32,313 bases of DNA, taken from contig CAXHJY010000727.1 of the NCBI GenBank assembly GCA_964016885.1, forward strand, positions 1 to 32,313. The letters are read 5' to 3'. The position numbers and the translations under genes are program-made. Of the stretch, positions 4,109 to 31,608 are shown in pieces. The notes below the pieces were generated by a model that saw only the letters and a program-made list of their open reading frames with translations, ran no database searches and had not been told where the DNA came from. The stretch comes from Eledone cirrhosa. Lineage: Eukaryota. Position 1 is the stretch's first letter. Each line of letters begins with the position of its first letter.

Positions 4109-4122
4109 CAATAATAATAATA

Positions 4123-4305
4123 ATTGTTTCTACTTTTGGCACAAGGCCAGCAATTACCAGTGCATTACTGGTACTTTATTTTATCGACCCCGTAAGGATG
4201 AAAGGCAAAGTCAACCTCGGCGGGATTTGAACTCAGATCGTAAAGGGACGTAACTATGCTGGAAAGCATGGCGTCCGACCCTCTACCGATACTGCCAATC
4301 CACCG
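4123..4305 (-). mobile_element. tRNA-derived SINE (octopus type), near full length
   Basis: Minus strand has an A-box-like TGGCAGTATCGGTAGA and B-box GAGTTCAAATCCC. Flanked by (AAT)n. Several homologues in the window. Confidence 0.9.
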
Positions 4306-4321
4306 AATAATAATAATAATA

Positions 4322-4832: not shown

Positions 4833-4860
4833 GCAGTCTTCAGACTAAAGGGACAATAAA

Positions 4861-5037
4861 TGTTTCTACTTTTGGCACCACAAGGCCAGCAATTATCCCA
4901 GTGCATTACTGGTACTTTATTTTATCGACCCCGTAAGGGTGAAAGGCAAAGTTGGCCTCGGCGGGATTCGAACTCAGAACGTAAAGGGCCGTAACTCTAT
5001 GCTACAAAGCAGAGCTTCCGACCCTCTACCGATACTG
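4861..5037 (-). mobile_element. tRNA-derived SINE, slightly 5'-truncated
   Basis: High similarity to 4123-4305. Confidence 0.9.
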
Positions 5038-6484: not shown

Positions 6485-6564
<80 letters not shown>

Positions 6565-6566
<2 letters not shown>

Positions 6567-7006
6567 AAAGTTATATTTAAATTGTTGGGTTACAACTAGT
6601 AAATATTTATAACTGATATAAAAGCACTCGACAAATATTTGGAGTATATTTACAATATTAAATAAATGGAAACTATATTTATAAAACCATATTTATTTCA
6701 TTATATATATTTCAGGGATATCATATTAACAATATGCTATGCCTTCCTCAGACAAAATACAATATAAACAGTTTTATAGATAAATAGATTCGACATACCG
6801 TAACAACATCGACTTGTATTTGAAAATCAACCTTTTCAAATACAAGTCGATGTTGTTACGGTATGTCGAATCTATTTATCTATAAAACTGTTTATATTGT
6901 ATTTTGTCTGAGGAAGGCATAGCATATTGTTAATATGATATCCCTAAAATATATATAATGAAATAAATATGGTTTTATAAATATAGTTTCCATTTATTTA
7001 ATATTG

Positions 7007-7014
<8 letters not shown>
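6565..7014. mobile_element. PLE-like asymmetric foldback, family A copy 1
   Basis: Arms 6645-6826 / 6833-7014 are near-perfect, with an 80-bp tail (6565-6644) on the long arm. Hammerhead in each arm (CTGAGGA at 6908; GAAA is intact in the minus-strand arm). (TA)n on both sides. Confidence 0.85.
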
Positions 7015-7043
<29 letters not shown>

Positions 7044-7045
<2 letters not shown>

Positions 7046-7218
7046 CGAAGGAAATGTGGTAAGGAACCAGGTGGACCATAACGCACCAAAGTACTCAATA
7101 CTTAGGGTAGTAGAGTGGGTAATAGGAACGAGTAGGACCCCGACGGCTGAGCTCAAGCCGTTTCGACGGCTAATTCCGTCGAAACGGCTTGATCTCAGCC
7201 GTCGGGGTCCTACTCGTT

Positions 7219-7223
<5 letters not shown>
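7044..7223. mobile_element. PLE-like asymmetric foldback, family B copy 1
   Basis: Arms 7122-7169 / 7176-7223 carry GAAA-CGGCT-loop-AGCCG-TC (hammerhead stem III plus GUC site). Tail 7044-7121. Lies in (TA)n. Confidence 0.8.
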
Positions 7224-7250
<27 letters not shown>

Positions 7251-7253
<3 letters not shown>

Positions 7254-7545
7254 ACAAATTTCGCTCTACATGGCTGAATGCAATAAATGTAATCTGAGTT
7301 TTTCGAATATTAATAATAACATTCGATTCGTTTAAAATTATGCTAACAAGCCTCAATTTTATAGCCATGTCAGTAAAATGAACCCCTGAGCTGTACTGAT
7401 GAAGGGTGATACCCAGAAACAGTGTCTGCAGTTCTGTTTGCATGTCAACACAAGAGCAAGAATGAAGGGTTCATTCTACTGACATGGCTATAAAATTGAG
7501 GCTTGTTTGCATAATTGCAAAAGAATCGAATGTTTTTATTAATAT
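7251..7545. mobile_element. PLE-like asymmetric foldback, family F
   Basis: Arms 7307-7387 / 7465-7545, tail 7251-7306, complete hammerhead in the spacer. Single-arm homologue at 10992-11118. Confidence 0.8.
7388..7434 (+). ncRNA. Type I hammerhead ribozyme (minimal)
   Basis: Stem I GAGCTGTA/TGCAGTTC; CTGATGA 7396-7402; stem II GGGT/ACCC; GAAA 7416-7419; GTC site 7424-7426. Confidence 0.8.
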
Positions 7546-7695: not shown

Positions 7696-7731
7696 TCTTC
7701 TGATGAAGGATTAGCGTCCGAAACGTTAAGA
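7696..7731 (+). ncRNA. Type I hammerhead ribozyme (minimal) in a PLE-like terminus of about 7590-7820
   Basis: TCTT-CTGATGA(7700)-A-GGA/TCC-GAAA(7720)-CGTT-AAGA, with palindromic AACGTT at stem III. Confidence 0.7.
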
Positions 7732-7859: not shown

Positions 7860-7864
<5 letters not shown>

Positions 7865-8134
7865 ATACTTTGGGAGGGTCATGTTGCCAATAATAAACAC
7901 ACGCACCAGTTGCTTTCACTTCAATTTATTATATATTTATAAATTTATAAATTTACAAATTTACAAACTTATAAATTTCTGGTTGGTTGGTTGGTTCCAC
8001 AACCAGATAGTTGTTTATATATAGTCATAGTCCTTTCGTCACACACTCTGTGACCTCTTCCCAAAGTATAACAATATCGGTTTCAACACACGATTTCAGA
8101 TAAAGAATCTTGCTAAACAAATTCAGAAACGAAA
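7860..8134. mobile_element. Family D copy 2, inverted arm plus tail
   Basis: 7860-8008 is the reverse complement of about 3216-3352, and about 8051-8134 is direct to about 3330-3412. The two parts overlap only at CCCAAAGTATAACAATA. Confidence 0.75.
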
Positions 8135-8159
8135 TATATATATATATATATATATATAT

Positions 8160-8612
8160 GGAAAGTTATATTTAAATTGTTGGGTTACAACTAGTAAATA
8201 TTTATAACTGATATAAAAGCACTCAACAAGTATTTGGAGTATATTTACGATATTAAATAAATGGAAACTATATTTATAAAACCATATCTATTTCATTATA
8301 TATATATTTCAGGGATATCATATTAACAATATGTTATGCCTTCCTCAGACAAAATACAATATAGACAGTTTTATAGATAAATAGATTTGACATACCGTTC
8401 AACATCGACTTGTATTTGAAAAAGTGCCAAATCAACTTTTTCAAATACAAGTCGATGTTGAACGGTATGTCAAATCTATTTATCTATAAAACTGTCTATA
8501 TTGTATTTTGTCTGAGGAAGGCATAACATATTGTTAATATGATATCCCTGAAATATATATAATGAAATAGATATGGTTTTATAAATATAGTTTCCATTTA
8601 TTTAATATCGTA
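8160..8612. mobile_element. PLE-like asymmetric foldback, family A copy 2
   Basis: Arms about 8246-8425 / 8435-8612, tail 8160-8245. Intact hammerhead cores in both arms (CTGAGGA 8512, GAAA 8550). Confidence 0.85.
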
Positions 8613-8690
8613 TATATATATATATATATATGTTGATTTAAAACTGCACTATCCACAAGTGTTTTTTAGCCTTCATATCATGTTCTCCTG

Positions 8691-8757
8691 TTTTATCTGA
8701 TGAAAACACAAATATTATTGCATGATGATGTTTGTTTTTGAAATGCGCATAATAAAA
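8691..8757 (+). ncRNA. Type I hammerhead ribozyme in a (TA)n-flanked insert (8630-8797)
   Basis: Stem I TTTTAT/ATAAAA; CTGATGA 8697-8703; stem II ACAAATAT/ATGTTTGT; GAAA 8740-8743; palindromic ATGCGCAT; ATA site. Confidence 0.8.
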
Positions 8758-8794
8758 TACATGGAACTCTTTTAACCATCTTTTGATCTTATAT

Positions 8795-8835
<41 letters not shown>

Positions 8836-8899
8836 ACACACACACAGGGACGAATGGTTACTCCTTCATTACGTTTATTGGTTGGTAAGAAGGCGCTAG

Positions 8900-9038
8900 A
8901 TACCCAGGGAGTGTAACGCGAAGTTACTGCAGGGTCACCCGGGTGTCTAGCTCTACACCTCGCTACTGATGTGAACCCAAACATTGAGGGCTCACCTGGG
9001 TGAACCTACAGTAACTTCGCGTTAGACTCCCTGGATAT
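8900..9038. repeat. 46-bp inverted repeat (8900-8945 / 8993-9038)
   Basis: Five mismatches by eye. Adjoins a family I tail at 8847-8887. Confidence 0.8.
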
Positions 9039-10474: not shown

Positions 10475-10530
10475 ACTGCCTGATGAGGTCATAGCCATTC
10501 AATGGCTATCATCGAAATATATATAGCAGT
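10475..10530 (+). ncRNA. Type I hammerhead ribozyme in a (TA)n-flanked insert (10411-10576)
   Basis: Stem I ACTGC/GCAGT; CTGATGA 10480-10486; stem II GGT-ATAGCCAT/ATGGCTAT-ATC; GAAA 10514-10517; TATATATA stem III; AATAAA follows. Confidence 0.85.
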
Positions 10531-11118: not shown

Positions 11119-11191
11119 TTTTATTCATTCTGACGACTGAAGACAGATATAAATATCTGTCTTCAAGAAACCACTGGTAAATAAAATAAAA
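11119..11191 (+). ncRNA. Type I hammerhead ribozyme
   Basis: CTGACGA 11130-11136; long stem II TGAAGACAGATAT/ATATCTGTCTTCA; GAAA 11167-11170; stem III CC-ACT-GG; GTA site; weak AT-rich stem I. Confidence 0.75.
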
Positions 11192-24302: not shown

Positions 24303-24422
24303 GGCGGTGGATTGGCAGTATTGGTAGAGGGTCGGACGCCATGCTTTGCAGCAAAGAGTTACGGTCCTTTATGATCTGAGTTCAAATCCTGCCGAGGTTA
24401 ACTTTGCCTTTCATCCTTACGG
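24303..24422 (+). mobile_element. tRNA-derived SINE, 3'-truncated
   Basis: GGCGGTGGATTGGCAGTATTGGTAGAG...GAGTTCAAATCCTGCCGAGG. Confidence 0.9.
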
Positions 24423-24804: not shown

Positions 24805-25215
24805 TATCACAGAAAAAAAGAGAATCAGTGTTGCGACGAATGGAATTTATTGGACATATGACAATCGTTTCTCTGGCGACCAGCTCGAGGCACGATCGAT
24901 GTGATGATCGAACCTGACTCTGAAAAACGCAAGGTTCTCGGATACGAAGCAGATTTTCCTATGGACATAGGGAAATCTGCTTCGTAGAATCAAGACGTAT
25001 CTGAGGACCTTGCGATTTTCAGAGTCAGGTTCGATCATCACTTCGGTCGTGCCTCGAGCTGGTCGCCAGAGAAACAATTGCAATATGTCCAATAAATTCC
25101 ATTCGTCGCAACACTGATTCTCTTTTTTTCTCTGATATCATACTCTGCTCTATGAGAGCATCGAGTGCTCATACGGCCTACCGCATACGGACGCTTTAGC
25201 ATCCAACACCAATTA
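24805..25215. mobile_element. PLE-like asymmetric foldback, family L
   Basis: Arms 24805-24963 / 24966-25137 (the left arm has a small deletion), tail to 25215. Hammerhead GACGTAT-CTGAGGA(25001)...GAAA(25071)...ATATGTC, then AATAAA. Confidence 0.85.
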
Positions 25216-25485
25216 TTATATATATATATGCATATATATATATGTATGTATATATATATATATATATATATAAACAATGAGTTATATGGTTTGTTGATTA
25301 TCATTCAACAAAATTAATTTTACACACACACACACACTTACACACACACACACTTACACACACACACACACACACATATGTATTTCTTTAATGATTTTTG
25401 TGCAACATAACTGCGTTCTAAGAAAATGACTAAATAAACTTATATGTGTGTGTGCCTACACATATATCTACATATATTATGTATG

Positions 25486-25605: not shown

Positions 25606-26055
25606 GATAAATCTACCAAAATATGCGGTAGTGTCCAATCCGTATGAAGAACTCAATGTAATCCAAATATCATGAAAAGAAAAGATGTATTCAAAATTTG
25701 TTTCGATGAAAATCACAGGAAAACAGAGTCAAGATAAATTAACAAAAACAATGAATAAAAACAAAGAAACAGTTCCTTATATTAAAAAATTCATCATTTT
25801 ACGATCGTTTCTAGGATATATATGTCTGTGTTGGTATGTATATCATATAGATCTATGTAAAAATTATTTCTGAAGACAGCATATATATGTGTAGGTATGT
25901 ATATTCCGTCTGATAGTTTGTAACATTTTTACATAGATCTATATGATATACATACCAACACATACATATATATCCTAGAAACGATTGTAAAATGATGAAT
26001 TTTTTAATATAAGGAACTGTTTCTTTGTTTTTATTCATTGTTTTTGTTAATTTAT
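25606..26055. mobile_element. PLE-like asymmetric foldback, family M
   Basis: Arms 25734-25864 / 25925-26055, tail to the left. Hammerhead ATTATTT-CTGAAGA(25870)...GAAA(25978)-CGATTG-TA-AAATGAT. A fragment of the same family lies at about 31940-32015. Confidence 0.8.
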
Positions 26056-26916
26056 ATGTGTATGTACATTTATATCTGCATATATTTATGTATGTGTGTG
26101 TTTATATATATATGCATATATATATATGTGTGTCTGTATATAAATGTATGAATGAATGTAAATGTATATATACACACACACATATATATATAATGTGTGT
26201 GTGTGTGTGTGTATGTATATATGCATATATATATATGTGTGTGTGTGTCTGTGTGTGTGTATACATTTACATTCATTCATTCATACATTTATATACAATG
26301 AAAGTCGTTTATAAATATCACTGTTGCGATAGTCTTTTAAATATGACAATAAACAAGTGATAACATTATGCAGAGGACACAACTATATGCTTGAGAAAGC
26401 AGTTGAAAACTACAACAATTTTGATGTTATTCATAATTATAATATGCGGCTTTCAGTGTACGATATAATTGTTTTGTTTAGCTTAACCCCTTTTGATACC
26501 AACCGACCCCAAACCGTCTCAATTTTTATGTCTTTTTAACGAACCTTTCTATTTAAATTAGAACCTTCCACAATAATTTGATATAACTACCCTCCTCTTT
26601 ATAATGGAATAATTAATAATTTTAGTAAGTCCCTCTGATAATCTTCATTGATATCTACTCGCCCCAAATTAATTCTGGTTCTATGGGACAAAATCACCCA
26701 TTTTGTGCATACATACGTGGTTCTGTAACTCAAGATGGCGTCGCAGTGAGGCTGTATTGATATACGGCGTTTCTAGGGCATTTTTAAAAACCTGGTGGAG
26801 CTCATCTCATCTCCAGGTCTCCCACTTTATAGGAGGTCCTAAATAGATTAAAACCTTCCACAATAATTTGATATAAGAACCCTTTGTTGTTTTACGAGTA
26901 GCACCATATTTATAAT

Positions 26917-27084
26917 TGTTTCTACTTTTGGCACAAGGCCAGCAATTATCCCAGTGCATTACTGGTACTTTATTTGATCGACCCCGTAAGGATGAAAGGC
27001 AAAGTTAACCTCGGCGGGATTTGAACTCAGAATGGCAAGGGCCGTAACTCTATGCGTCAAAGCATGGCGTCCGACCCTCTACCG
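26917..27084 (-). mobile_element. SINE with 11-bp TSD
   Basis: ATATTTATAAT at 26906-26916 and 27085-27095. Confidence 0.92.
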
Positions 27085-27485
27085 ATATTTATAATGAAAT
27101 AATTAATAACTTTAGTAAGTCCCTCTGAAGTCTTCATTGATATCTACTTTCCCCAGACTAATTCTTGTTCTACGGAATAAAATCACCCATTTTGTGTTTG
27201 CATACGTGGTTCTGTAACTCAAGATGGCGTCGTATACCAATACAGCGTTTCTAGGGCATTTTTAAAAGCCTTTTGGAGCCTATCTCTTCTCCAGGTCTCC
27301 CACTTTATAGGAGGTCCTAAATAAATTAAAACCTTCCACAATAATTTGATATAAGAACCCTTTGTCACAAACGCCATCTTAATAATAAAATAATTAATAA
27401 TTATAGTAAATCTCTCTAAATTCTTCATTAATATGAACTCAACCCGAACTAACTCTACGGAATAAAATCAACCACATTATTTAAA

Positions 27486-27651
27486 GATTGGCAGTATCGG
27501 ACGCCATGCTTTGACGCATAGTTACGGCCCTTGCCATTCTGAGTTCAAATCCCGCCGAGTTTAACTGTGCCTTTCATCCTTACGGGGTCGATAAAATAAA
27601 GTACCAGTAATACACTGGGTGTTTGCTGGCCCCGTTCCAAAAGTAGAAACA
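27486..27651 (+). mobile_element. SINE with 10-bp TSD
   Basis: ATTATTTAAA at 27476-27485 and 27652-27661. Small internal deletion between TCGG microhomologies. Confidence 0.92.
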
Positions 27652-28062
27652 ATTATTTAAATTAAAATCATTCAACATAATTTATTCATAAGAACCCTTT
27701 GTTAAGTTATGCATGTTACAAATACCTTCTTAATGAAATAATCGTTATAGTAAATCCCTCTAAATTCTTGATTAGCCCTTTCAATACCAACCCAGCCAAA
27801 CCCAACTCTCGTTCCATGAAATAAATCCAACAGTTTTGTTCCTATTTTAATTAAAATCTTCCCAGATAATTTTATATCGGAATCTTTTGTTAAGTTATGA
27901 TAGAAATACCGTCTTAATTAGGACATAATTAACGAATTCAGTGAAGTCCACTTAATTCCTTAATTGAGATACGAAGTACTTCATTAGAATTACGTTCAGG
28001 AAAGGGTTAAAGATTTTATACACGGAAGCTTGTTAATAAAATAGGGCTTGTGTAAAGCGTTG

Positions 28063-29029: not shown

Positions 29030-29031
<2 letters not shown>

Positions 29032-31060: not shown

Positions 31061-31091
31061 CGAGATATATATATATATATAAAATCTTTGG

Positions 31092-31233
31092 AATTTAGTC
31101 CAGAAATAGACGTCGTAACGGCTTCAGCTCTGCCGTCGGGGTCATACATTTTCCTATTACCCACTCTACTACCCTAAATATTGAGTACTCTGGTACGTTA
31201 TGGTCCATCTGGTGCCTTACCACAACTCCTTCG

Positions 31234-31235
<2 letters not shown>
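31092..31235 (+). mobile_element. Family B single-arm diverged copy
   Basis: Matches 15183-15315 and extends the family 5' to TTAGTCCAGAA. Confidence 0.8.
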
Positions 31236-31267
<32 letters not shown>

Positions 31268-31395
31268 TCATCATTATCATCGTTTAAAGTCCATCTTCCA
31301 CGCTAGATATATATATATATAATTCAAGTTAAAAGAAATATTGATGCTCTGGGCTGGGAAAAAGTCCATTGAGCTTTTCTATTGAGAAACATAAT

Positions 31396-31564
31396 TGTTT
31401 CTACTTTAGGCACAAGCCCAGCAATTACTGGTACTTTATTTTATCGACCCCGTAAGGATGAAAGGCAAAGTCAACCTCGGCGGGATTTGAACTCGGATCG
31501 TAAAGGGACATAACTCTATGGAAAGCATGGCGTCCGACCCTCTACCGATACTGCCAATCCACCG
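31396..31564 (-). mobile_element. SINE with a 9-10 bp TSD
   Basis: GAAACATAAT at 31386-31395 and 31564-31573. Confidence 0.92.
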
Positions 31565-31608
31565 AAACATAATGATCATACATATATATGTGATGATAGC
31601 TTAAATTA

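Follow-up and report, generated by a model that had tools for sequence, protein, structure and literature searches.

PAc, the Poseidon Penelope-like element (PLE) of Anolis carolinensis, has been purified and shown to cut AT-rich DNA on both strands and to extend both. Its reverse transcription (RT) starts at two internal sites whose spacing corresponds to the tail; a dimer is predicted, and uncleaved RNA is used (Frangieh et al. 2024, PMC11167929). The core idea discussed below, two fixed RT starts that delimit the tail, is therefore known. The available portions of that report neither assign one start to each DNA end nor give a twin-priming account of inverted arms.

In a standard PLE insertion a 5'-truncated copy is inverted and a tail of 30-40 bp is often confined to one end (PMC8557442; PMC3846280), and how PLEs form inverted repeats and one-sided tails has been stated to be an open question (PMC8557442). 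Type I hammerheads with a palindromic helix III are a mark of PLE pLTRs (PMC4209133; PMC6765202), a non-autonomous origin from PLEs has been proposed for short non-coding hammerhead repeats (Li et al. 2026, bioRxiv 10.64898/2026.07.22.740005), and recently active Penelope families have been reported in octopus (PMC13282606).

The short inserts described here come from a single window, the whole stretch of 32,313 nt that was analysed. PAc resembles our reading of them in its two RT starts delimiting the tail, AT-rich targets, cutting and extension of both strands, and an upstream hammerhead left uncut in the template (PMC11167929). It differs in that its starts lie in an AC-rich stem-loop and that its printed template, inspected by eye, is without ACUC; a likeness between its start region and the hairpin described below was for this reason dropped. 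The tail of the inserts measures 49-82 nt from ACUC to tip (11 scored copies), compared with 30-40 nt in print. With the EN+ PLEs the inserts share an inverted 5'-truncated copy joined head-to-head, a tail that is often one-sided and junction palindromes, and for Naiads a preference for (TA)n is also reported (PMC8557442; PMC3846280). The available text of these two papers, however, derives the tail from endonuclease resolution and the inversion from self-priming, and mentions no shared hairpin. Identity with Naiads was rejected, as Naiads are described as lacking canonical hammerheads and the inserts have them. The inserts hold no ORF that could carry the N-terminal endonuclease of Naiads.

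Non-LTR retrozymes and PLE hammerheads are similar to the inserts in having a type I hammerhead, a palindromic stem III and short non-coding pLTR-related repeats (Cervera and De la Pena 2014, PMC4209133; bioRxiv 10.64898/2026.07.22.740005). The inserts differ from retrozymes in the absence of two-hammerhead tandem arrays in each family, in their inverted stumps and in a long and varied stem II; correspondingly, in masked self-comparison of the window none of these families formed a head-to-tail array, the retrozyme arrangement in which every unit has a complete type I hammerhead. In L1 twin priming (Ostertag and Kazazian 2001, as presented in PMC2246262) both break ends prime on one RNA and an inverted 5' piece results, a geometry that the inserts B4, C3 and C4 also have. 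Differences from L1 are the lack of a poly(A) tail, an internal site that is fixed beside a structure and not variable, and the frequent overlaps of 50-185 nt.

Non-coding inserts between (TA)n tracts

The window is AT-rich animal DNA of octopus-like appearance and is dense in microsatellites. Its masked self-comparison revealed numerous short inserts placed between tracts of (TA)n, and several of these form local inverted repeats. The segment 6565-7223 holds two, A1 and B1; in each, a long arm with its RNA-sense 3' end leftward and a short arm directed rightward are joined head-to-head. A1 follows a (TA)n target tract (6487-6564) and has its long arm at 6565-6829, with RNA sense on the minus strand and the tail tip at 6565. 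This arm carries a bulged hairpin of the form ACUC..YY-GAGU (6626-6645, minus strand), with a tail of 81 nt from ACUC to tip, and a type I hammerhead with an 8-bp stem I and a palindromic stem III (6694-6759, minus strand). The head-to-head junction lies at 6818-6843 and the short arm at 6835-7013 (plus strand), where the hammerhead copy has a G-to-A change in its GAAA core. Another (TA)n tract (7010-7044) separates A1 from B1, which consists of a long arm with tail (7045-7176, minus strand), a bulged hairpin (7093-7116, minus strand) and a short arm (7176-7223, plus strand). We added the family labels E (7251), K (8845, insert 8845-9038) and N (11.5 kb); the other letters follow the preliminary description.

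Judged from their sequence, the inserts appear to be non-coding end modules of Penelope-like retroelements, an element class left unnamed in the preliminary description. They combine a type I hammerhead, head-to-head inverted arms, a one-sided tail and (TA)n targets. An inverted 5'-truncated copy joined head-to-head, as in EN+ PLEs, is present, and the tail occurs on one arm only in all 17 two-armed inserts examined; any target-site duplication would be masked by the (TA)n flanks. No telomerase-like RT with a GIY-YIG endonuclease was seen among the 77 window frames of 90 or more amino acids listed, and the six of them scanned against Pfam gave no match. Such an absence is expected of non-autonomous stumps; it also means that PLE membership is argued from structure and that we infer the mobiliser.

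The type I hammerhead descriptor gave ten matches, nine with a palindromic stem III, located in family A, in an A-like sister copy, in E and in three other inserts. The short arm of the E insert (7251-7541) has a complete hammerhead at 7388-7434. The core is partial in C and not resolvable in B, and in L the pairing was traced by eye only. Three targeted Rfam scans of inserts returned no hammerhead match, and the 150 of 346 rows listed from the whole-window Rfam scan contained just sub-threshold microsatellite and hairpin matches. Further hammerheads are found at 7696-7731, 8689-8759, 10475-10530 and 11130-11195, with a varied and often long stem II; the last one sits directly behind an E-family tail region.

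The window also contains other repeats. Two fragments, 20747-21442 (plus strand) and 14134-14493 (minus strand), resemble C-terminal pieces of non-LTR retrotransposon ORFs, presumably RTE or CR1-like, and have no Pfam match. A SINE-like repeat of about 120-200 bp is present in six copies 80-93% alike (4114-4321, 4855-5037, 24305-24422, 26906-27087, 27497-27657 and 31391-31580), and at 26554-27474 an AT-rich unit forms three to four diverged copies in tandem, interrupted by SINE copies.

Arm ends, junctions and overlaps

The family-constant tail tips claimed in the preliminary description are borne out: they agree within 1-2 nt in 3/3 copies of A, 5/5 of B, 2/2 of D, 2/2 of M and 3/4 of C. The exception, C4, stops a few nucleotides earlier than the other C copies, in (CA)n. 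The companion claim, that short arms stop just 5' of the ACUC motif, holds for 15 of the 17 two-armed inserts, whose ends fall from -11 to +1, and fails for D and K, which have no ACUC there.

Positions are counted from the A of ACTC and given as ranges because of TA microhomology. The short arm ends at -4..+1 in A1 and at -7..-5 in A2 (8160-8610) and A3 (16200-16654). Family B is similarly uniform, with -8..-5 in B1, B2 (15130-15314) and B3 (15790-15980) and, from a pairwise alignment, about -8..-5 in B4 (19228-19316). The ends in family C are -6 in C1 (9791-9966) and, taken from alignments, -3..+1 in C2 (20402-20572), about -3..+1 in C3 (19329-19444) and about -6..-4 in C4 (2436-2507). Values of -7..-3, -9..-5 and -11..-7 were obtained for L (24808-25216), M (19455-19745) and E, respectively; for N (11481-11655), with diverged arms only about 70% alike, the end at about -4 is weak. 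Five local inverted repeats lack a clear tail or hairpin (2136-2324, 14701-14772, 17209-17490, 25734-26055 and 26135-26297), and the inverted pairs beginning at 2136, 14701, 17209 and 25734, having no clear tail or short-arm end, were excluded from the counts.

In D (7861-8133) and K the end looks fixed although the hairpin is absent, and both may belong to another PLE lineage. Three K ends (1-51, 8845-8900 and 15343-15440) share an ACCAA-rich motif where other families have the ACUC hairpin; it is possible that this motif represents a second class of start signal.

Copies of family A were also sought among reads and contigs. Four runs were aligned to the A2 long arm, in which the A of ACTC is at 8240; X3, with three contigs under 90% alike, was left out. 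Six rows of loose ends account for 25,970 of the 26,546 partly aligned reads in the raw RAD-seq run X8, and those with a (TA)n consensus lie at 8240 (5306 reads) and 8256 (1388 reads). The row at 8175 was set aside as reflecting the library cut at the sole AATT site, which hid the tail tip in X8, and those at 8201, 8217 and 8305 as indel or variant clips, their consensus continuing the element. In a simulation with our own scoring, true ends from -8 to 0 all clipped at 8240. The consensus at 8256 ends like 13337-13346 of the A-like sister copy (13225-13346, plus strand), which has a hammerhead, ends at the proximal site, lacks a tail and carries a 1-nt deletion at this place; the 8256 row therefore most likely marks the same short-arm site in a sister subfamily. 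The contigs of X4 have 38, 2, 46 and 51 loose ends at 8240, 8244, 8249 and 8256 (137 of 385 partly aligned), with low agreement at 8249 and 8256, and in run X1, which bears a second species label, 3 of 19 lie at 8240 and are pure TA. All of these figures come from the loose-end rows listed and concern a single family, and RAD reads are not independent loci. A strand-switching joint at 8240 in X8 (21 reads, 4 starts) may be a further case of the non-nested arms described below.

The overlaps between arms are as originally described, namely about 180 bp in A, about 20 nt in D and none in C3 and C4. The accompanying statement that the central junction varies from copy to copy is true at base resolution, where every junction differs; in long-overlap copies, nevertheless, both arms end near one family-specific place, about 10-15 nt away at most, which is often hairpin-forming. 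The A3 junction (16372-16400) repeats short stretches of the sequence that flanks it, resembling templated insertion in end joining.

In six inserts, B4, C3, C4, D, E and M, comparison with a further copy confirmed that the short arm carries element sequence which the long arm does not have. Such sequence cannot have been copied from the long arm, so a second priming event is needed. B4 is the clearest of these non-nested cases: its tail arm ends 4 nt before ACUC and is followed, with no overlap, by an inverted piece of 16-19 nt (19301-19316) that ends at the usual B site. This piece was overlooked in the first reading; none of 2000 shuffles scored as high, and B5, a single long arm at 31082-31234 (plus strand), served as an independent reference. 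C3 consists of a short arm and a tail arm starting inside the hairpin, and C4 of a short arm and a 13-18-nt piece of the tail end, both with no overlap. The short arm extends further 5' than the long arm in E, and by approximately 40 nt in M, where it (19455-19570) also has a 22-nt internal deletion relative to a copy at 29030. Non-overlapping inverted and direct parts of the L1 type are thus present in B4, C3 and C4, and nearly so in D, and absent in A1-3, B1-3, C1-2, L, M and E. In B and C, non-nested short arms end where the nested ones do.

Variable alignment columns bear on how the arms are related: in A and B, 9 of 16 group by copy and none by arm, the two arms of one insert sharing private variants. 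Each palindrome was accordingly built separately from one source allele.

A bulged hairpin between the arm ends

A hairpin common to six families lies between the two putative starts. Its base is a 4-bp stem of ACUC with GAGU; two pyrimidines bulge on the 3' side, and the upper stem remains paired though its sequence varies by family. The pattern ACTC-N8-20-TYGAGTRC matches the window 12 times, with 0.04 expected by chance, in A, B, C, L (25142-25166, upper stem of 6 bp) and N (11513-11532, with a UUCG loop). A structure descriptor likewise gave 12 matches, with 0.1 expected, and adds a sixth family at 11354-11387 (minus strand), for which no short arm was identified. The strict descriptor misses B5, and the relaxed one yielded a single additional match with 4.0 expected, hence no new members. 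M and E have ACUC without its full GAGU partner.

In an alignment of 12 rows that takes in M and E, pairing holds in 89% of cells and three of the seven pairs show two-sided change; the covariation score was reached by none of 500 shuffles, and slid registers pair at 17-56%. Because the structure was derived from these same rows, which are related to one another, the values are support for the pairing and not proof of it. Folding is weak (z from +0.2 to -1.8 in six motif-bearing segments), and this unremarkable energy is more in keeping with a site bound by protein than with a physical block. The preliminary description had the hairpin set the internal priming site. Position and covariation, from which its role in setting the proximal start would follow, agree with that proposal, while the fixed-looking ends of D and K, where it is missing, do not.

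Rfam gave no match across the A hairpin and tail. A family-B motif had no matches in JGI metagenomes; a looser version hit at least 117 stretches, and since none of 117 had a fold-back, two a hammerhead-like core and one a TA run, these were put down to chance. Neither a shared bulged hairpin in PLEs nor Penelope twin priming or a pLTR stem-loop was found described in the papers searched, a set that excluded most of the subscription literature. Relative to this set, the additions made here are the shared hairpin between the starts and an arm geometry suggesting that each DNA end uses its own start.

Origin of the two arms

The best fit to these observations, which we hold with moderate confidence, is that non-autonomous PLE modules moved in trans have two fixed RT starts and that each DNA end uses one of them. 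The inserts would be pLTR or retrozyme-like end modules. A GIY-YIG/RT protein would cut both strands in (TA)n, and each freed 3' end would prime reverse transcription on sense RNA, one at a distal start corresponding to the tail tip, 49-82 nt past ACUC, and the other at a proximal start 0-11 nt 5' of the conserved bulged hairpin. The hairpin between them would probably bind or position the protein, with a nearby TA run fine-tuning the exact base, and the two cDNAs would then be joined head-to-head. A distal cDNA that stops at or before the occupied proximal site would leave no overlap, as in B4, C3 and C4. One that reads through, whether it strips the first cDNA from RNA that has escaped degradation or runs on a second RNA of the same source, would produce a long overlap, and the long overlaps are probably due to such read-through. 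PLE RTs are not known to carry RNase H.

Two starts and the extension of both strands have been demonstrated for PAc, yet in the same in vitro work the start site was no different between strands, which counts against one start per end (PMC11167929). As first formulated, the model had both ends of a break prime RT at two sites and the cDNAs join head-to-head. The non-nested arms, which need a priming event of their own, uphold the first part; the contribution assigned to the hairpin is conjectural. The associated remark that long overlaps are not expected from classical twin priming applies to the long-overlap class only, B4, C3 and C4 having the non-overlapping geometry.

The principal competitor, which we regard as less likely but as a serious rival, applies to the long-overlap class. 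Here a cDNA or antisense template would fold at a palindrome, prime itself and be copied tailward, so that the short-arm end would be a stop or an endonuclease cut and not a priming point. Self-priming was proposed by Arkhipova 2013 (PMC3846280), and Craig 2021 attributes the tail to endonuclease resolution (PMC8557442). Such a snap-back predicts near-symmetric arm ends within about 10-15 nt at hairpin-like centres, as seen in A, B, C1, C2 and L; private variants common to both arms fit it too, and read depth in the raw run drops from 5603 to 485 to 0 at the same place in A, whatever the cause. It cannot, however, produce the short arms of B4, C3, C4, D, E and M with their sequence missing from the long arm, the non-nested short arms of B and C end at the same site as the nested ones, the hairpin is a weak block, and two-site priming has been demonstrated in vitro for PAc (PMC11167929). 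Identical cDNAs would anneal only at a self-complementary stretch and give the same picture as snap-back, so the long-overlap class does not decide between the two.

Far less probable, and largely refuted, is the inheritance of the fixed ends from a few palindromic master copies amplified whole, with the arms later homogenised by gene conversion. Palindromic arms can undergo gene conversion, and junction zones do cluster within families. Nevertheless, every junction differs, arms group by copy nine to zero, and the same end recurs in overlapping and non-overlapping copies and in unrelated families.

TA microhomology of 1-5 nt is present at 10 of the 11 scored short-arm ends, C1 being the exception. 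A null was constructed for six families in which ends were placed at random on the TA runs that each long arm offers, with the interval of -12..0 picked after inspection of the data. For all ends to fall within 12 nt before the motif, it gave P of 9e-7 to 4e-6 with runs of 2 or more nt and 4e-6 to 6e-5 with 3 or more nt; with 4 or more nt it is weak (5e-5 to 4e-3), and B and C have few other runs of that length. The longest TA run was left unused in A (9-11 nt at about -65, 3/3 copies, among 23-24 runs of 3 or more nt) and in M (10 nt at -68, 1/1), and no TA-consensus loose-end row appears at the long run of A among the rows listed for the raw run and the best contig set. That short-arm ends merely fall where the RNA offers TA microhomology, independent of motif distance, the alternative raised in the preliminary description, is hardly credible in view of this null, the unused runs and the C1 end; TA microhomology tunes the exact base and does not choose the site.

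Two fixed starts, one for each DNA end, therefore remain the preferred reading. We tentatively extend it, with rather more doubt, to a recognition rule: the ACUC/GAGU hairpin with its two-pyrimidine bulge may be the recognition element of one PLE lineage. A protein dimer bound there would start two cDNAs, one for each side of the break, the first immediately 5' of the hairpin and the second 50-80 nt to its 3' side. The two published explanations of PLE insertions disagree with each other and with the later in vitro result, and the locus offers a natural test set, as twin priming and self-priming predict non-nested and nested arms, respectively. It also provides a short candidate cis-element, common to otherwise unrelated families, that can be mutated in an existing assay format. 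If true, the rule of hairpin and dimer would explain why Penelope-like insertions have a tail on one side, are inverted head-to-head and fall into two overlap classes.
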